Shown piece by piece: positions 6,473 to 21,334 of a DNA stretch of 64,000 bases (positions are counted from its first letter, which is position 1; every line of letters begins with the position of its first letter). A model generated the notes under the pieces. That model did not search any database. It was not told where the DNA came from and saw only the letters and a program-made list of their open reading frames with translations. The DNA is taken from assembly GCF_016903815.1 (NCBI RefSeq), contig NZ_CP069973.1. The stretch is one strand, 5' to 3'. This stretch comes from Escherichia coli (lineage in GTDB: Bacteria; Pseudomonadota; Gammaproteobacteria; Enterobacterales; Enterobacteriaceae). The position numbers were made by a program, and so were the translations under genes.

Positions 6473-6955
6473 GAAAACCCAGTCCTTGCAAAGATGAAGT
6501 CGAAATGCGCGATGACACACTACTGAAAGCGGAAGGACGAGTAAAGTTGCAATTAAAAGGAAATGTTATGCATAAGGATCGGTAGGGTATTCATTTTCAT
6601 TTAAAGATATTCTTGCGCTTTAATTACAAACCGCACCGGTGTTGGTGGCGTCAAAATCGCCGAGGCGTTCCCTGAAGGCCGGGGCAGCCCACATGGATGT
6701 GGGCTGAGGGCGCGTTTTACAGGGATGTTACCTCGCGCCCGACCCGGTAGCCGCAAGGGATAAGTCGAGGGCACCGCGCAGCGGCGATTTTGTTCGCCAG
6801 AGCCCGGGGGTGCAGGGGGCGGCGGCGATTGGCCGCCCCCTGCGCGCTCCCTGCGCCAGTGACTATATGTGGCTTAACACATCAAGGAGCGCAACAGGAA
6901 GATGAATCAATATATTTAAAAAAGGCCTGACATTGCGCCAGGCCTTCTGCGTTAA

Positions 6956-11954: not shown

Positions 11955-13897
11955 CGCCCTTGCTCGAATTAAAGGATATTCGTCGCAGCTATCCTGCCGG
12001 TGATGAGCAGGTTGAGGTGCTGAAGGGCATCACCCTCGATATTTATGCTGGTGAGATGGTGGCGATTGTCGGCGCTTCGGGTTCCGGTAAATCGACCCTG
12101 ATGAATATTCTCGGCTGCCTGGATAAGGCCACCAGCGGCACCTATCGCGTAGCCGGTCAGGATGTTGCCACTCTGGACGCCGATGCGCTGGCGCAACTGC
12201 GCCGCGAGCATTTCGGCTTTATTTTCCAGCGTTACCATTTGCTTTCGCATTTAACCGCCGAGCAGAACGTTGAAGTACCCGCCGTCTATGCTGGTCTTGA
12301 GCGGAAACAGCGGCTGCTTCGCGCCCAGGAGTTGCTGCAACGACTGGGACTGGAAGACCGTACAGAGTATTACCCGGCACAGCTTTCGGGGGGGCAGCAA
12401 CAGCGCGTCAGCATCGCGCGGGCATTGATGAACGGCGGTCAGGTAATTCTTGCCGATGAACCAACCGGCGCACTGGACAGCCATTCTGGCGAAGAGGTGA
12501 TGGCGATCCTGCATCAGCTGCGCGATCGCGGGCATACGGTGATTATCGTTACCCACGATCCGCAGGTCGCTGCTCAGGCCGAGCGGGTGATCGAAATTCG
12601 CGACGGCGAAATTGTGCGCAATCCTCCCGCCGTTGAAAAAGTGAATGTTGCTGGCGGGACGGAACCTGTTGTCAACACGGCCTCTGGCTGGCGGCAATTT
12701 GTCAGCGGTTTTAACGAAGCGCTGACGATGGCATGGAGGGCGCTGGCAGCGAATAAAATGCGTACTTTACTGACCATGCTGGGGATTATTATCGGTATTG
12801 CGTCGGTGGTTTCCATTGTCGTGGTGGGCGACGCCGCCAAACAAATGGTGCTGGCAGATATTCGTTCTATTGGTACGAATACTATTGATGTCTATCCCGG
12901 GAAAGATTTTGGCGATGACGATCCGCAATATCAGCAGGCGCTGAAGTACGACGACTTAATCGCCATCCAAAAACAACCGTGGGTCGCCTCAGCTACACCT
13001 GCCGTCTCGCAAAACCTGCGCCTGCGTTATAACAATGTTGATGTTGCTGCCAGTGCCAATGGCGTGAGCGGCGATTATTTTAATGTCTATGGCATGACCT
13101 TCAGTGAAGGAAACACCTTTAATCAGGAGCAGCTGAACGGTCGTGCGCAGGTGGTGGTTCTCGACAGTAATACTCGCCGCCAGCTTTTCCCCCATAAAGC
13201 AGATGTGGTTGGCGAGGTGATTCTGGTCGGCAATATGCCCGCCAGAGTCATTGGTGTGGCGGAAGAAAAACAGTCGATGTTTGGTAGCAGTAAAGTGCTG
13301 CGTGTCTGGCTACCTTACAGCACGATGTCCGGGCGAGTTATGGGCCAGTCGTGGCTGAACTCCATTACTGTCAGGGTGAAAGAAGGATTTGACAGCGCCG
13401 AGGCGGAACAGCAACTCACGCGTTTACTTTCACTGCGCCACGGTAAGAAGGATTTCTTTACCTGGAACATGGACGGCGTCTTGAAAACCGTTGAAAAGAC
13501 CACACGTACTTTACAACTGTTTCTGACGCTGGTGGCAGTGATTTCGCTAGTGGTGGGCGGTATTGGTGTAATGAATATTATGCTGGTGTCAGTGACCGAG
13601 CGGACGCGGGAAATTGGCATTCGCATGGCTGTAGGTGCGCGAGCAAGTGATGTGTTGCAACAGTTCCTGATCGAAGCCGTGCTGGTTTGCCTGGTCGGTG
13701 GCGCGTTGGGAATAACACTGTCACTGTTAATTGCTTTCACCTTGCAGCTTTTCTTACCCGGCTGGGAGATTGGTTTTTCACCGTTGGCGCTGCTGCTGGC
13801 GTTTCTCTGCTCGACGGTCACCGGGATTTTATTTGGCTGGTTACCCGCACGAAATGCGGCACGACTGGATCCAGTAGATGCTCTGGCACGAGAGTAA
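11951..13897 (+). CDS. macB: macrolide ABC transporter ATPase/permease
   Basis: 648 aa; N-terminal ABC ATPase with Walker [10 protein letters not shown] and signature LSGGQQQRV; C-terminal FtsX-like permease. Confidence 0.95.
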
Positions 13898-13969: not shown

Positions 13970-14194
13970 CTATGCGACTGCCGCTTCTACTTCGACGGGC
14001 ACAATAACACTGGCGTGATTGCCTTTTGGCCCCTGGTGGACATCAAACTGAACGGATTGTCCAGCTTTTAGCGTTCTGTAACCATCCATCTGAATGGTGG
14101 AATAATGAGCGAAAATATCTTCGCCGCCGCCTTCAGGGCAGATGAAACCAAACCCTTTGGCATTGTTGAACCACTTAACAGTACCCTTTTCCAT
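13970..14194 (-). CDS. cspD: stationary-phase cold-shock-family protein CspD
   Basis: 74 aa from MEKGTVKWFNNAKGFGFI; cold-shock domain RNP motifs. Confidence 0.93.
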   Translation of the reverse strand: MEKGTVKWFNNAKGFGFICPEGGGEDIFAHYSTIQMDGYRTLKAGQSVQFDVHQGPKGNHASVIVPVEVEAAVA

Positions 14195-14516
14195 GCTTCG
14201 ACATCCTTCGCAAATCTTATACAAGTAAGATGGAATAAACCGGGGTCAGAGAGGGGGCTGTTCAAAACCTCGCCAACTCTAGAAATACAATTTAGAGAAT
14301 TAGGGCGAGCCGTCAAGCATTTGACAGGGGCCAGGGGGCAGGTATGAATCAAAAATTTGAAGCAGTTAACGCTATTGACAGGAATGTGACAGATGTCGCT
14401 GATGCCAACGATAGATGATAGTTATCTATCATGTGGAGTAGATTGGTCAGGCAAATAAGCTCTTGTCAGCGGCAGGGTGTTCTGCCGATAACCGTAACCG
14501 AAGATGATAACTGACA

Positions 14517-14837
14517 ATGGGTAAAACGAACGACTGGCTGGACTTTGATCAACTGGCGGAAGAAAAAGTTCGCGACGCGCTAAAACCGCCATCTATGTAT
14601 AAAGTGATATTAGTCAATGATGATTACACTCCGATGGAGTTTGTTATTGACGTGTTACAAAAATTCTTTTCTTATGATGTAGAACGTGCAACGCAATTGA
14701 TGCTCGCTGTTCACTACCAGGGGAAGGCCATTTGCGGAGTCTTTACCGCCGAGGTTGCAGAAACCAAAGTGGCGATGGTGAACAAGTACGCGAGGGAGAA
14801 TGAGCATCCATTGCTGTGTACGCTAGAAAAAGCCTGA
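14517..14837 (+). CDS. clpS: ClpA adaptor protein ClpS
   Basis: 106-aa [46 protein letters not shown]; immediately upstream of clpA. Confidence 0.95.
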
Positions 14838-14867
14838 ATGCAGGCATAAAAATTGGGGGAGGTGCCT

Positions 14868-17144
14868 ATGCTCAATCAAGAACTGGAACTCAGTTTAAAT
14901 ATGGCTTTCGCCAGAGCGCGCGAGCACCGTCATGAGTTTATGACCGTCGAGCACTTGTTACTGGCGCTGCTCAGTAACCCATCTGCCCGGGAGGCGCTGG
15001 AAGCGTGTTCTGTGGATTTGGTTGCGCTCCGTCAGGAACTGGAAGCCTTTATTGAACAAACCACACCCGTTCTGCCTGCCAGTGAAGAGGAGCGCGACAC
15101 ACAGCCAACGCTGAGTTTTCAGCGTGTACTGCAACGTGCGGTCTTCCATGTCCAGTCCTCCGGTCGCAATGAGGTTACCGGTGCAAACGTTCTGGTCGCT
15201 ATCTTTAGCGAACAGGAGTCGCAGGCGGCATATCTGTTGCGTAAACATGAAGTCAGCCGTCTCGATGTGGTGAACTTTATCTCTCATGGCACGCGTAAAG
15301 ACGAGCCGACACAGTCTTCTGATCCTGGCAGCCAGCCAAACAGCGAAGAACAAGCTGGTGGGGAGGAACGTATGGAGAATTTCACGACGAACCTGAATCA
15401 GCTTGCGCGCGTGGGCGGAATCGACCCACTGATTGGTCGTGAGAAGGAGCTGGAGCGTGCTATTCAGGTTCTCTGCCGTCGCCGTAAAAACAACCCGCTG
15501 CTGGTGGGGGAATCTGGTGTCGGTAAAACCGCGATTGCAGAAGGTCTTGCCTGGCGAATTGTTCAGGGCGATGTGCCGGAAGTGATGGCTGACTGTACGA
15601 TTTACTCTCTCGATATCGGTTCTCTGTTAGCGGGCACAAAATATCGCGGCGACTTTGAAAAACGTTTTAAAGCGTTGCTCAAGCAGCTGGAGCAGGACAC
15701 TAACAGCATCCTGTTTATTGATGAGATCCACACCATTATCGGTGCGGGTGCAGCGTCTGGTGGTCAGGTCGATGCGGCTAACCTAATCAAACCGTTGCTC
15801 TCCAGCGGTAAAATTCGCGTAATTGGTTCGACAACCTATCAGGAGTTCAGCAACATTTTCGAGAAAGACCGTGCTCTGGCGCGTCGCTTCCAGAAAATTG
15901 ATATTACTGAACCGTCGATCGAAGAAACTGTTCAAATCATCAATGGCCTGAAACCGAAGTATGAAGCGCACCACGACGTGCGTTATACCGCAAAAGCGGT
16001 GCGTGCAGCGGTAGAGCTGGCGGTGAAATACATTAACGATCGTCATCTGCCGGATAAAGCCATTGACGTTATCGACGAAGCGGGCGCTCGCGCACGCCTG
16101 ATGCCGGTAAGCAAACGCAAGAAAACCGTTAATGTGGCGGATATTGAGTCCGTGGTGGCCCGTATTGCGCGCATTCCAGAGAAGAGTGTTTCTCAGAGTG
16201 ACCGCGATACCCTGAAAAACCTCGGCGATCGCCTGAAAATGCTGGTCTTCGGTCAGGATAAAGCCATCGAGGCGCTGACTGAAGCCATTAAGATGGCGCG
16301 TGCAGGTTTAGGTCACGAACATAAACCGGTCGGTTCGTTCCTGTTTGCCGGCCCTACCGGGGTCGGGAAAACAGAGGTGACGGTACAGCTTTCGAAAGCT
16401 TTGGGCATTGAGCTTCTGCGCTTTGATATGTCCGAGTATATGGAACGCCATACCGTCAGCCGTCTGATTGGTGCGCCTCCGGGATACGTTGGTTTTGATC
16501 AGGGCGGTTTGCTGACTGATGCGGTCATCAAGCATCCACATGCGGTGCTGCTGCTGGACGAAATCGAGAAAGCGCACCCGGACGTGTTCAATATTCTGTT
16601 GCAGGTGATGGACAACGGTACGCTGACCGATAACAACGGACGCAAAGCGGACTTCCGTAACGTGGTATTGGTGATGACCACCAACGCTGGGGTACGAGAA
16701 ACTGAGCGTAAATCGATTGGTCTTATCCACCAGGACAACAGCACCGATGCGATGGAAGAGATCAAGAAGATCTTTACGCCGGAGTTTCGTAACCGTCTCG
16801 ACAACATTATCTGGTTCGATCATCTGTCAACCGACGTGATCCATCAGGTAGTGGATAAATTCATCGTCGAGTTGCAGGTTCAGTTGGATCAGAAAGGTGT
16901 TTCTCTGGAAGTGAGCCAGGAAGCGCGTAACTGGCTAGCCGAGAAAGGTTACGACCGGGCAATGGGCGCACGTCCGATGGCGCGTGTCATCCAGGACAAC
17001 CTGAAAAAACCGCTCGCCAACGAACTGTTGTTTGGTTCGCTGGTGGACGGCGGTCAGGTGACGGTTGCGCTGGATAAAGAGAAAAATGAGCTGACTTATG
17101 GATTCCAGAGTGCACAAAAGCACAAGGCGGAAGCAGCGCATTAA
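14868..17144 (+). CDS. clpA: ATP-dependent Clp protease ATPase subunit ClpA
   Basis: 758 aa from [20 protein letters not shown]; two AAA+ modules (GESGVGKT and GPTGVGKT Walker A motifs). Confidence 0.95.
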
Positions 17145-17167
17145 TCTAATTGTTAGGTAGGTTGGTG

Positions 17168-17207
17168 AAGTCCGTAATCTCGAAAGAGGTTACGGACTTT
17201 TTATTTA
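17168..17207 (+). terminator. clpA rho-independent terminator
   Basis: Hairpin gtccgtaatctcgaaagaggttacggac followed by tttttattt. Confidence 0.6.
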
Positions 17208-17486
17208 TGGGGTGGAGGAGGTTCAGACCCTTTTTTTGATGATGATGGTAAGTTGTTGATAATTAGTGCTGCGGGAAGGTAAGGATAAAAAAGGGTGCTG
17301 CAGGAGAATGGGATGGTTTTGCTTTATTAACAACGGGCTAAACGTGTAGTATTTGAGTTCATTGCCGTACAGGCAGCTTAGAAAGCCAACCGAAAGAAAA
17401 ACTCGATTTTTATACCGTTCACTGCCGTACAGGCAGATAAAATGCGAAAAAAAACTCGTACTTTCGTACGAGCTCTTCTTTGAATA

Positions 17487-18022
17487 TGGCGGTGAGGGGG
17501 GATTGACTCGCTTCGCTCGCCCTGCGGGCAGCCCACTCACTGTGTTCGTGGTCTGTCCAACTGGCTGCGCCAGTTGTCGAACCCCGGTCGGGGCTTCTCA
17601 TCCCCCCTGGAGTGCAATATGCGAAAAAAAAGCTCGCACTTTCGTACGAACTCTTCTTTGAATATGGCGGTGAGGGGGGGATTGACTCGCTTCGCTCGCC
17701 CTGCGGGCAGCCCACTCACTGTGTTCGTGGTCTGTCCAACTGGCTGCGCCAGTTGTCGAACCCCGGTCGGGGCTTCTCATCCCCCTTGGAGTGCAATATG
17801 CGAAAAAAAAGCTCGCACTTTCGTACGAGCTCTTCTTTGAATATGGCGGTGAGGGGGGGATTGACTCGCTTCGCTCGCCCTGCGGGCAGCCCACTCACTG
17901 TGTTCGTGGTCTGTCCAACTGGCTGCGCCAGTTGTCGAACCCCGGTCGGGGCTTCTCATCCCCCTTGGAGTGCAATATGCGAAAAAAAAGCTCGCACTTT
18001 CGTACGAGCTCTTCTTTGAATA
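17487..18022. repeat. tandem array of three ~179-bp direct repeats (17487-17664, 17665-17843, 17844-18022), each ending in a copy of the tRNA-Ser 3' end and containing a terminator-like hairpin plus T-run; a partial degenerate copy lies upstream at ~17340-17486
   Basis: Direct inspection: the motif tggcggtgaggggg recurs at 17487, 17665, 17844 and at the genuine tRNA 3' end (18023); the sequence between copies is near-identical. Confidence 0.85.
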
Positions 18023-18110
18023 TGGCGGTGAGGGGGGGATTCGAACCCCCGATACGTTGCCGTATACACACTTTCCAGGCGTGCTCCTTCAGCCACTCGG
18101 ACACCTCACC
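18023..18110 (-). tRNA. serW: tRNA-Ser (GGA anticodon), serW-type
   Basis: Reverse complement reads GGTGAGGTGTCCGAGTGGCTGAAGGAGCACGCCTGGAAAGTGTGTATACGGCAACGTATCGGGGGTTCGAATCCCCCCCTCACCGCCA; long variable arm; 3' CCA encoded. Confidence 0.92.
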
Positions 18111-18363
18111 AAATTGTTTTGCTACCAAACCTCATGGGTGGCAACGGGGCGCTACTATAGGGAGTTGGAGTAAAACGGTCAAGAAGAATTTTAATGATAA
18201 TTATTGTTTGCTCATACTGTAAACAAGTTGTGCAGTATATCTACATCGAGACAAGTTATGGACTTATACTTCCAAAGTACTTCATACATATCACAAAATA
18301 AAAAGGCCGGTTAAACCGACCTTTTACTCGTTCTTTCTCTTCGCCCATCAGGCGGTAAAACAA

Positions 18364-18585
<222 letters not shown>

Positions 18586-18866
18586 ATCCTCTGGGGTATC
18601 ACTACCGTAATTTGAACCGGCAAGATAATGCCGAAGTTCTGTAAATAAGTAAAGATTTGCGCGCTAAATCGCAACAAACAGGTTCGGCACATTACTCCGA
18701 AAACACACGGCTAAGCCGCACCAAAAGCGCAACGTATAAGGGAGCGGTGAGATAAACGATGGGCGTTACCTGACGCGAAAAATTCCTTATCGGCAGCGGG
18801 GTAATGAGCGTAACCAACTCTGCGACCGCAATTATAACACTCTGGGGAGAAATGTGCCGAAAACAT

Positions 18867-19571
18867 TCATTCTTGTGGTGAAAACAAGCACCGTGGTACC
18901 CAGAAATTATTCGGCAATCGTCCGAGGCGCATTTGATTGAGATAATTGAGGTAATCCCGGCGGGGAATTTCGCAGGCACCAAGCGACGCTGTGTGATCGT
19001 TAAGGACCTGGCAGTCGATAAGTTTACCGCCATGACCAATAAATTCCTCACAGAATACCAGAAGCGCCGTTTTAGACGCATTTTCCATCCGGCTGAACAT
19101 GGACTCGCCACAAAATAGCGTTCCCTGGGCCACGCCGTACATACCGCCGACAAGCTCATCTTCACGCCAGACTTCAATAGAGTGGGCATGACCGAGTTCG
19201 TGAAGGCGATGGTAGGCTTCGACCACGCCACGCGTGATCCAGGTTCCTTCTTCGCGATCGCTGGCACAGCCTTCAATGACCTGACCAAAAGCGTAATTCA
19301 TCGTGACTCGATAGGGCGAGCGTTTATGAAATCGCTTCATACTACGGCTGATATGCAGTGATTCAGGCCAAAGCACCGCGCGAGGATCGGGCGACCACCA
19401 GAGGATGGGGTCACCTGGAGAAAACCACGGAAAAATACCACGCTGGTAAGCCATTAACAGGCGCGCAGGGCTAAGATCGCCCCCCAGTGCCAGCAGGCCG
19501 TTAGGCTCACGTAATGCGCCTTCCGGGGAAGGGAAGGCTATTGAATGGCGAGAAAGCTGAACCAGGCGCAT
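18867..19571 (-). CDS. aat: leucyl/phenylalanyl-tRNA--protein transferase
   Basis: 234-aa ORF; synteny between infA and cydC. Confidence 0.9.
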
Positions 19572-19612
19572 GACCGCAAAACTCCACGCAAGTCGGATCG
19601 TTCAATAATAGC

Positions 19613-21334
19613 TTACAAACCCTGCTTAAACTGGTAATAACGCCCCTGTCTGGCAAGCAGTTTTGCGTGAGTACCTTGCTCAATAATTTGCCCGTTGTCC
19701 ATCACTATTATTTGTTGGAAACGAGAGAGTCCACGAAGTCGATGGGTGACCATTAACACCGTTTTCTCACGCATCATTTCTGCAAGCAATTCTAGGATCT
19801 GACTTTCGGTTGTGGCATCTAAGCCTTCTGTAGGTTCATCCAGCAATACCAGCGGCGCATCATGTAACAGCGCACGGGCGATAGCCAGACGGCGTAGTTC
19901 ACCACCGGAGAGCTGGCGTCCGCCTTCACCCAACCAACTGTTGAGACCTGCATCCTCGAGCAGCTTCTCCAGACCAACGCGACGTAAGATCTCCGCCAGA
20001 GCCTCATCACTACTGCCAGGCGAGGCGAGTAACAGATTATCACGCAGCGTGGCGCTAAACAGATGCACTCGCTGTGGCACAACGCTGATGGTCTGTCGTA
20101 GAGTCGCTTCATTCAGGCTGGCTATGGGGCTATCGTTAAGCAAAATCTCGCCCTGTTGCGGGTCCCATGCGCGGGTCAGCAGTTGTAACAGTGTTGATTT
20201 GCCGCATCCGGTTCGCCCGAGAATCGCTATATGTTCTCCGGCGTTTACCTGAAGAGAAATCCCTTTAAGTGCCTGTTGGGATTGCTCCGGATAAGTGAAC
20301 TGAACATCCCGTAACGTCAGCGAAACGCGATCGGCAACACGAGTTTGGGTATCAGGGAAGGTGACCTCCGGTTTTTGATCCGTTAAGTCAGTGATCCGTA
20401 CGGCAGAGGCAATGACTTGCCCCAGATGCTGAAATGCACCCGTTACTGGTGCCAGTGCTTCAAACGCGGCTAACGCGCAGAAGACAAACAGGGCAATTAA
20501 CGCGCCGGGTTGAGCATTGCCGCCAACGCCGCCAGACGCCATCCACAGCATCAGGATCACCGCTAACGCGCCAATGAGCAGCATTATCGCTTGCGACAAT
20601 GCGGTGAGTTCAGATTGACGTCGTTGCGCTTCCAGCCACTGAATTTCGGTATTCTCTAACTGCGTGCGATAACGATCGCTGGCACCCAAAATGGTCAGCT
20701 CAGCTTGCCCTTGCAGCCAGGCCGTCAGTTGTTGGCGATACTGCCCGCGAAGATGAGTCAGATTTTGCCCGGTGCTTTTTCCCGCACGATAAAACAGCGG
20801 TGGCATCAGGAAAAGCGTCAGTAACATAATGCCGCCCAGCGTAAAGGCGAGGGTGAAATCAAGGAAACTTAACCCGATTGTCACCACCATAATCACCACA
20901 AAAGCGCCCACCAGCGGCGAGATAACGCGCAGGTAAAGATGATCGAGCGTATCAACATCCGCCACCACGCGGTTGAGCAATTCGCCCTGACGATAGCGCG
21001 CCAGTCCGGCAGGGGAGAGGGGCAGCAATTTGCTGAAGGTATAAATGCGCAGATGCTGCAACACGCGGAAAGTCGCGTCGTGACTTACCAGACGTTCAAA
21101 ATAGCGCCCGGCAGTACGGGTGATTGCTGCACCACGCACGCCCGCAGCGGGTAGCATATAGTTGAAGCTGTACAGTCCGGCAACCCCCGCTACCGCTGAG
21201 GCCGAGAGGAACCAGCCGGAAAGTGTCAACAGACCGATACTGGCGAGCAGCGTGACAATTGCCAGCACAATACCAAGACTTAACATCCATTTATGACGTT
21301 TATACAGTGCCAGATAGGGTAGCAAAGCGCGCAT
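19613..21334 (-). CDS. cydC: cysteine/glutathione ABC exporter subunit CydC
   Basis: 573 aa; N-terminal TMD and C-terminal ABC ATPase (GRTGCGKST; LSGGELRRLAIARAL). Confidence 0.93.
   Translation of the reverse strand: MRALLPYLALYKRHKWMLSLGIVLAIVTLLASIGLLTLSGWFLSASAVAGVAGLYSFNYMLPAAGVRGAAITRTAGRYFERLVSHDATFRVLQHLRIYTFSKLLPLSPAGLARYRQGELLNRVVADVDTLDHLYLRVISPLVGAFVVIMVVTIGLSFLDFTLAFTLGGIMLLTLFLMPPLFYRAGKSTGQNLTHLRGQYRQQLTAWLQGQAELTILGASDRYRTQLENTEIQWLEAQRRQSELTALSQAIMLLIGALAVILMLWMASGGVGGNAQPGALIALFVFCALAAFEALAPVTGAFQHLGQVIASAVRITDLTDQKPEVTFPDTQTRVADRVSLTLRDVQFTYPEQSQQALKGISLQVNAGEHIAILGRTGCGKSTLLQLLTRAWDPQQGEILLNDSPIASLNEATLRQTISVVPQRVHLFSATLRDNLLLASPGSSDEALAEILRRVGLEKLLEDAGLNSWLGEGGRQLSGGELRRLAIARALLHDAPLVLLDEPTEGLDATTESQILELLAEMMREKTVLMVTHRLRGLSRFQQIIVMDNGQIIEQGTHAKLLARQGRYYQFKQGL

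Follow-up and report, generated by a model that had tools for sequence, protein, structure and literature searches.

The repeats downstream of serW in the Escherichia coli contig NZ_CP069973.1 are three tandem tRNA-linked repeats (TLRs) of the RtT type attached to this tRNA gene, and they belong to a known enterobacterial repeat family rather than constituting a new element. The locus was analysed within a 64-kb window (the whole stretch of DNA under study), with BW25113 as the K-12 strain compared at serW. Taken as a whole, it is best explained by serW-linked RtT-type TLRs whose RNAs would arise, by analogy with other members of the family, through read-through and processing, and whose copy number would be changed by unequal recombination, an explanation that we regard as probable; the family identity, the anatomy, the polymorphism between strains and the conservation across genera form its directly established part.

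A single tandem array was reported by TRF at 17442-18041 (period 179, 3.4 copies, 98% matches, no indels, score 1165), and an independent repeat search recovered three 188-nt copies at spacings of 179/179 with 99-100% identity, together with four copies of a 55-nt trailer/terminator/tRNA-end block, which confirmed the three tandem units of about 179 bp that a sequence-only reading had placed downstream of serW. The gene itself, tRNA-Ser(GGA) at 18023-18110 on the minus strand, was the single tRNA found in the window by ARAGORN (Rfam tRNA, 53.8 bits), and none of the units was called by ARAGORN in the window as a tRNA or pseudo-tRNA gene. The 15-mer CCCCCCTCACCGCCA was present at just four positions of the 64-kb window, namely 17487, 17665, 17844 and 18023, always on the minus strand, and 0 of 100 shuffles contained a match. 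In the two tRNA-proximal units the tRNA-derived block comprised 19 nt (AATCCCCCCCTCACCGCCA, tRNA positions 58-76), its template being the last 19 nt of serW (18023-18041), and the distal unit lacked one C, which reduced it to 178 bp; the three downstream positions given earlier for copies of the tRNA-Ser 3' end were accurate, but their length of about 18 nt was not, as the block measures 19 nt in the two proximal units and is one C short in the distal one. The spacer between the clpA stop codon and serW amounted to 877 bp here compared to 343 bp in K-12 BW25113, a difference of 534 bp that approximates the 536 bp of three units and bears out the previous estimate of a spacer of about 880 bp, roughly three units longer than in K-12.

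Read in tRNA orientation, each unit opened with a trailer of 5 nt and a 16-bp hairpin that has a GAAA loop and runs into U8; a G+C-rich core of about 115 nt came next, and the tRNA-end copy AATCCCCCCCTCACCGCCA closed the unit. The hairpin with its T-run and the internal palindromes were as the sequence-only reading had described them. Unit 1, the tRNA-proximal one (17844-18022, minus strand, 179 bp; detected by TRF, the repeat search and the Rfam RtT model), contained a stem-loop at 17982-18017, the U-run, the RtT core and the 19-nt tRNA-end copy at 17844-17862. Unit 2 (17665-17843, minus strand, 179 bp; TRF and repeat search) had the same anatomy and was 100% identical to unit 1, with its terminator hairpin at about 17803-17838 and its pseudo-3' end at 17665-17683. 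Unit 3, the distal one (17487-17664, minus strand, 178 bp; TRF and repeat search), was 98% identical to units 1 and 2, with a terminator hairpin at about 17624-17659 and a pseudo-3' end, one C short, at 17487-17504. Beyond this last pseudo-3' end, a further trailer and terminator formed a terminal partial copy (17442-17486, minus strand; hairpin at 17447-17480 plus T-run), after which unique DNA began; the terminator scan and the comparison with the K-12 serW and other alleles identified this segment as the serW trailer and last terminator, and the equivalent block sits directly after the tRNA in 0-unit strains such as K-12. The repeated block extends 45 nt beyond the tRNA end and includes the trailer and the terminator.

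The identity of the family was given by Rfam, in which all three units matched RF00391 (RtT RNA) on the minus strand over the full model (positions 1-130). The match of unit 3 (17487-17621, 48.6 bits) exceeded the gathering score of 45, and those of unit 1 (17844-17978) and unit 2 (17665-17799) fell below it (41.6 bits each, E = 4.6e-6); the K-12 serX units likewise straddled this score (46.3, 46.3 and 36.1 bits). According to PMC8144298, TLRs lie in tRNA or rRNA operons, directly behind the stable-RNA gene and on its strand, and their hallmark is that the last 18-19 bp of the repeat reproduce exactly the 3' end of this gene; this source credits their first description, at tyrT, to Egan & Landy (1978) and the TLR catalogue, with 22 copies at ten K-12 loci and 1-5 copies per locus, to Rudd (1999). 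In the window, the units begin directly after the serW CCA on the same minus strand, units 1 and 2 repeat 19 identical nucleotides of the tRNA 3' end, unit 3 matches it exactly over 15 nt and is one C short of the full 19-nt block, and the three full units lie within the range of 1-5 copies per locus. RefSeq/PGAP annotation already places an "RtT sRNA" in the clpA-serW spacer of other E. coli genomes, and in the RefSeq record of the window's allele this label is found only on the unit that passes the gathering score.

Within K-12, the serW array is a paralogue of the arrays behind serX and tyrT/tyrV. The serX gene is a second tRNA-Ser(GGA) gene identical in sequence to serW, and its array of 3.4 x 181 bp, located between serX and ycdU and labelled "RtT sRNA" by PGAP, had the same copy number and the same succession of trailer, terminator, RtT core and 19-nt tRNA end, with units 91-94% identical to those of serW. 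It differed in its locus (the ghrA side, compared to clpA-infA for serW), in units that were 2 nt longer and carried diagnostic substitutions, and in its distribution, since the serX array was conserved across Enterobacteriaceae genera while that of serW was seen only in a minority of E. coli and one cryptic Escherichia clade. The tyrT/tyrV repeats, which encode rtT RNA (RF00391), resembled the serW array in their tandem arrangement, in a unit length of about 178 bp and in following a class II tRNA, whose last 19 nt close each unit (3.1 x 178 bp behind tyrV in K-12 and one more unit between tyrT and tyrV). Their core is homologous to that of serW (RTGAGAA...CGAC...GGTTCG...CCCGNAGGG), and here too the 5' arm shows complementarity to the pseudo-3' end. 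However, the Tyr units scored 133-138 bits against RF00391 compared to 36-49 bits for the Ser units, and their arms followed the T-stem and acceptor of tRNA-Tyr, not those of tRNA-Ser. A third group, the rrnA/B/D TLRs (RrA, RrB and RrF), belongs to the same family and repeats 18 bp of the 5S rRNA 3' end; unlike the serW units, these are single copies, are linked to 5S rRNA and bind Hfq and CsrA, and the predicted CsrA-binding probability of the 19 tRNA-linked TLRs is given as <0.01 (PMC8144298). The search for the unit at other tRNA genes, which had been proposed beforehand, was therefore positive in K-12 (serX and tyrT/tyrV) and, as detailed below, behind tRNA-Tyr, tRNA-Ser and tRNA-Arg genes elsewhere.

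Copy number at serW varied among strains by whole units. Alleles with 1, 2, 3 and 4 units were read directly, K-12 had 0 units, and the range across strains was 0-4. Estimated by whole-locus coverage, 718 of the 5,426 complete genomes (~13%) covered at least 80% of the 1.5-kb clpA-infA query, corresponding to at least one unit, and the remaining ~87% had the 966-bp, 0-unit span; junction-specific BLAST counts of serW versus serX were dropped, as the internal units of the other locus cover 83-87% of the query. More than 50 complete assemblies matched the window's three-unit array with 100% identity, and close relatives carried two units. The sequence-only reading had named an invariant three-copy array of an annotated repeat family as what would count against it: the family was indeed a known and annotated one, but the array proved polymorphic. 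Its suggestion of an amplified tRNA-linked small RNA or terminator cassette was essentially right, with the RtT/TLR identity and whole-unit variation now filling in the outline. Since the units belong to a long-known repeat family and their copy number at serW is strain-variable, the array is an ordinary one, a variable member of a family known since 1978 and already annotated at the clpA-serW position.

Units within an array were 98-100% identical. Because serW-type units from different lineages, including a B-strain derivative with a K-12-like flank, shared 96-100% identity with each other and only 91-94% with those of the serX type, the serW array is best viewed as a distinct and fairly old paralogue, internally homogenised and often absent, and not as a recent copy of the K-12 serX array. 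In one genome the proximal unit was a serX/serW mosaic, which indicates that the two loci exchange sequence. In the window's own lineage (strain 7/2, NZ_CP023820.1, a three-unit strain), serX retained only a core stub of about 55 nt beside a deletion reaching dgcT, so that the combination of a serX stub with a serW array is the reverse of the K-12 arrangement. The serW array may be ancestral and often lost, or it may have been spread by recombination.

Relative to the 0-unit allele, the insertion comprised a whole number of units, and its end-points could be located no more precisely than to a 64-bp block, which comprises 19 nt of tRNA with the 45 nt of trailer and terminator that follow and is found at the tRNA end as well as at the end of every unit. 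Such whole-unit differences with ambiguous end-points are exactly what unequal recombination or slippage would generate. Through this shared 64-bp block, unequal crossing-over, slippage and gene conversion (including conversion with serX) would add or delete whole units, and such gain and loss would produce both the 0-4 copies across strains and the near-identical copies within an array.

With regard to expression, a promoter-like site (TTGACC-17-TATAGT, 18154-18182, minus strand; 10/12 consensus matches, a pattern match only) has its end 44 nt ahead of the 5' terminus of the tRNA. It is the sole candidate promoter for the whole array on this strand, and a consensus scan of the minus strand between 17442 and 18022 returned no sigma-70-like site, the only such sites lying upstream of serW. 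Independent sRNA genes are not supported on this ground, as the scan placed no promoter-like site inside the array on the strand of the tRNA. If the units behave like rtT RNA (tyrT) and RrA/B/F (rrn operons), transcription would start at the predicted serW promoter, with the units themselves promoterless; most serW transcripts would probably stop at the first terminator and a minority would read through into the array, where the pseudo-tRNA 3' ends may direct the normal tRNA 3'-maturation enzymes to cut downstream of each copy and trim back. Unit-length RNAs of about 130-175 nt would be released in this way, each further unit presumably being expressed less than the preceding one. Because the 16-bp hairpin and U8 should halt most serW transcripts before the first core, the unit RNAs may be rare.

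Several points of comparison are consistent with this scheme. In the K-12 annotation, rttR (171 nt) begins 7 nt past the tyrV 3' end and stops at the pseudo-CCA, where the Rfam match ends as well; it represents the spacer between the real and the mimic tRNA 3' ends. The rtT RNA, for which PMC8144298 cites Bosl & Kersten (1991), is processed from the tRNA transcript, and PMC8144298 attributes the TLR RNA end to the RNase E recognition that operates at 5S and describes the RNA of the rrnB T1-RrB-T2 arrangement as made by terminator read-through. The serW order of tRNA, terminator, core and terminator matches the latter arrangement, which lends support to read-through at serW. The idea of an independent transcript of about 170 nt per unit agrees in length with the 171-nt rttR of the tyrT paradigm, but not in its independence, as rttR is processed and the array contains no promoter-like site on the tRNA strand.

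To extend the comparison beyond E. coli, the core motif RTGAGAASCNNCGACNNNGGTTCG was scanned in one genome per species, which yielded at least 120 loci. Nearly all of the matches listed were from Enterobacterales, with a few in Pseudoalteromonas and single matches in three MAGs of other phyla; one of these three was a Paenibacillaceae element behind a tRNA, and the two without an upstream tRNA look like chance matches. Among the matches listed (n = 185 motif copies), 93 copies lay behind tRNA-Tyr(GTA), 67 behind tRNA-Ser(GGA), 8 behind tRNA-Ser(GCT) and 1, that of the Paenibacillaceae MAG, behind tRNA-Arg(TCT). The Ser(GGA)-linked arrays of other genera among these matches adjoined ghrA, which is the serX position, and infA-linked (serW) copies were listed only in Escherichia sp. 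MOD1-EC7003 and possibly one Citrobacter. The order tRNA-terminator-core-terminator was observed, again among the matches listed, in 39/42 Ser(GGA)-linked, 5/5 Ser(GCT)-linked and 1/1 Arg-linked elements, in which the terminator stem sequences varied between genera, whereas the Tyr-linked elements had no such terminator between the tRNA and the core (a T-run in only 8/59). Rfam did not detect the Pseudoalteromonas and Paenibacillaceae relatives, and the RtT-type design appears to be broader than the Rfam family.

The 179-nt unit was predicted to fold with -73.8 kcal/mol (z = -4.9) into a terminator hairpin and a multi-branched core closed by a helix between its G-rich 5' arm and the pseudo-3' end, leaving an 11-nt single-stranded 3' tail ending in CCA. 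In all four tRNA classes, the arm upstream of UGAGAA was complementary to the unit's copy of the cognate T-stem and inner acceptor, the arm/3'-block pairs being GGGGAAGGA/TCCTTCCCC for Tyr, GGGGGGGA/TCCCCCCC for Ser(GGA), AGAAGG/CCTTCT for Ser(GCT) and TTCCAGGAGGG/CCCTCCTGGGA for Arg. When only Watson-Crick pairs were counted, the mean helix length was 6-9 bp for cognate combinations, compared to 3-6.8 bp for non-cognate ones and 4.8 bp for shuffled arms; with G-U pairs allowed, the discrimination between cognate and control pairs vanished, because a G-run pairs with any pyrimidine run. Pairing was retained in a Pragia variant (GGGAGAAGG/CCTTCTCCC), and in a Citrobacter werkmanii element the arm GCGGGGG and the pseudo-3' end TCCCCGC both departed from the usual Ser(GGA) pair, matched each other, and included a pseudo-3' end that differs from the real tRNA. 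Another stem changed from CCAC/GTGG in the serW units to CCGT/GCGG in the serX units with the pairing preserved. Collectively, these changes are suggestive of covariation between arm and pseudo-end, in arms that are low-complexity purine/pyrimidine runs. The internal helices of the Rfam consensus structure differed from those of the minimum-free-energy fold of the Ser-type core, and RNAalifold on a MAFFT alignment of 30 diverse elements returned only 13 pairs, because the GGATGAGAA and GGTGAGAA variants were out of register and the central hairpins differed; the pairing evidence was taken from direct helix searches instead. A hammerhead ribozyme, considered for the GAUGAG...CGA resemblance, was rejected, as there was no Rfam hammerhead match at E<=1 and the essential C3 and U4 were absent.

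A recurring design therefore emerges that combines a terminator and a 5' arm fitting the T-stem and acceptor of the cognate tRNA with an invariant UGAGAA, a T-loop-like GGUUCG and a copy of tRNA nt 58-76; it was found behind tRNA-Tyr, tRNA-Ser(GGA), tRNA-Ser(GCT) and tRNA-Arg in Enterobacterales, Pseudoalteromonas and a Paenibacillaceae MAG. A speculative and rather doubtful interpretation of this design is that RtT-type units are selected functional mimics of the tRNA 3' end and not processing debris, in which case the unit RNA or DNA would titrate a factor that acts on this 3' end, be it a toxin, an integrase or an enzyme of processing or repair, and the 0-4 copies at serW would tune the dose. 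According to PMC8144298, the only function ever claimed for rtT RNA has been withdrawn.

The same conservation bears on the alternative of a neutral or selfish DNA satellite, kept by recombination between 64-bp direct repeats and yielding RNA as an inert by-product, which we consider unlikely. Such a satellite would be consistent with the absence of the serW array from ~87% of E. coli genomes with no obvious consequence, with the drift of its copy number between 0 and 4, with the reduction of the serX array to a stub in the window's own lineage, and with the statement in PMC8144298 that no function is known for tRNA-linked TLRs. However, the core motif and its cognate-matched helix have been kept behind different tRNAs in Enterobacterales, Pseudoalteromonas and the Paenibacillaceae MAG, pair-preserving changes were observed, and the serX-linked array occupies the same locus across many genera, all of which argue for selection on the element. 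For the E. coli serW array specifically, neutrality would agree with the 87% of genomes that lack it, whereas it fits poorly with the cross-genus design.

Very unlikely, in our assessment, is the first of the three origins proposed beforehand for the array, namely scars of repeated site-specific integration and excision, with the pseudo-3' ends as left-over att sites of a small integrative element or satellite. The duplicated block runs from the T-loop (position 58) to the CCA, the region used by tyrosine integrases that target tRNA genes; like att-site duplications, moreover, the array repeats the 3' part of a tRNA gene in direct orientation downstream of the intact gene. The serW gene itself is also used by an integrase-bearing island, which in one strain borders on 14 nt copied from the serW 3' end, next to a 2-unit array; serW is therefore an active integration target, and its core is present in every unit. 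Unlike att duplications, however, the units contain no integrase and no conserved ORF, and the repeats enclose no element genes; the repeat also takes in the 45 nt of trailer and terminator that follow the tRNA, and alleles differ by whole units without foreign DNA. The intervening core is, in addition, a conserved structured element, homologous to those behind tRNA-Tyr and serX and found at conserved positions in many genera. RtT-type TLRs changed in number by recombination thus remain the preferred reading of the array. For the scanning of genomes, this means that not every short repeat of a tRNA 3' end lying downstream of its own gene is an integration scar.

It is highly improbable that each unit encodes a small basic, Tpr-like "protamine-like protein" comparable to the tpr annotated inside rttR in K-12, and this candidate was rejected. 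The conserved RTGAGAA motif does provide an ATG or GTG, each unit contains a 60-aa ORF (for example 17777-17959, minus strand), and its beginning, MRSPDRGST, resembles the MRSFDQGST of Tpr as translated here from the K-12 tyrT unit. However, ORF length was erratic, ranging from 5 to more than 130 codons across 100+ elements, the similarity was confined to about 9 codons and ended where the conserved RNA motif ends, and a G-rich run lies directly against the start codon instead of at Shine-Dalgarno spacing. Finally, although 179-bp tandem repeats of 98-100% identity are hard for short reads, a collapsed or expanded assembly as the source of the three copies has a negligible probability, given more than 50 independent complete assemblies with the identical three-unit allele, close relatives with two units and other strains with one or four.

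Natural serW alleles with 0, 1, 2, 3 and 4 units on similar flanks, together with the reverse arrangement at serX in some lineages, offer material for copy-number tests, and as tRNA-linked TLRs are described in PMC8144298 as still functionally unexplained, the serW alleles retain a residual interest. The interval first delimited for the array, 17340-18022, was appropriate for its array part, but its first ~100 nt (17340-17441) lie outside the array and contain two orphan type I-F CRISPR repeats.

The RtT array behind serW and its counterpart at serX differ between E. coli lineages. In the lineage of the window, represented by strain 7/2, the serX array has been deleted together with ycdU and serW is followed by three units, the reverse of the arrangement in K-12, where the array stands at serX and serW has none. 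The serX remnant of strain 7/2 (locus L005, 31660-31760) retains the terminator, but its RtT core is reduced to about 55 nt and then runs directly into the 3' end of dgcT. A short hybrid unit was observed at the serX locus of E. coli SCPM-O-B-8794 (locus L057, about 6620-6690, read on the minus strand), in which the core breaks off at GGGGTTCGA|ATCC and its 5' portion is fused straight to the tRNA 3' block. This hybrid looks like a deletion from the T-loop-like box of the core to the pseudo-3' end, and it shows that the RtT core contains a second segment homologous to the T arm.

The clpA-serW region of E. coli Z1323CEC0013 (locus L131, 4586-5000) carries an island with a tyrosine integrase inserted at serW, and the 14-nt tRNA 3'-end copy retained at the island junction adjoins a 2-unit array. 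The island-proximal unit is a mosaic in which serX-type and serW-type diagnostic bases are mixed, which implies gene conversion between serX and serW.

Within the window, the serW terminator (17982-18017) is repeated at about 17803-17838, 17624-17659 and 17447-17480, and its A-rich 5' flank pairs with its own U-run to give a 16-bp hairpin. Because CTCTTCTTT follows this hairpin on the plus strand, the terminator could also be weakly active on transcription from the clpA side.

The design of the window's units was also found outside Enterobacterales, behind a tRNA-Arg(TCT) gene of a Firmicute, the Paenibacillaceae MAG CALGAO010000012.1 (locus L108, about 12540-12790, minus-strand reading), with the order tRNA, terminator, core, tRNA 3'-end copy and second terminator copy. 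Its core begins GGGTGAGAACCCACGACGGGGGTTCG and has an arm that is complementary to the tRNA end over 11 bp, and the element gave no match to the Rfam RtT model. A similar design was present at the Pseudoalteromonas tRNA-Ser(GCT) loci L011, L107 and L121. The RtT-type family may extend well beyond RF00391.

Two type I-F CRISPR repeats on the plus strand of the window (17357-17384 and 17417-17444; Rfam CRISPR-DR4, 40.0 and 29.7 bits) enclose one 32-nt spacer and separate the RtT array from the clpA terminator. No cas gene was present in the ORF list for window 14000-20500, which holds only cspD-clpS-clpA-infA-aat-cydC. K-12 has an equivalent orphan pair at the identical position but with a different spacer, and the window pair looks like the residual I-F CRISPR locus that is known from the clpA-infA interval. 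In NZ_CP083481.1 (1464972-1467183), this clpA-infA stretch is interrupted by an IS200C copy, so that it spans 2,212 bp in place of 1,501 bp; the rest of the locus matches the window at 100% identity.
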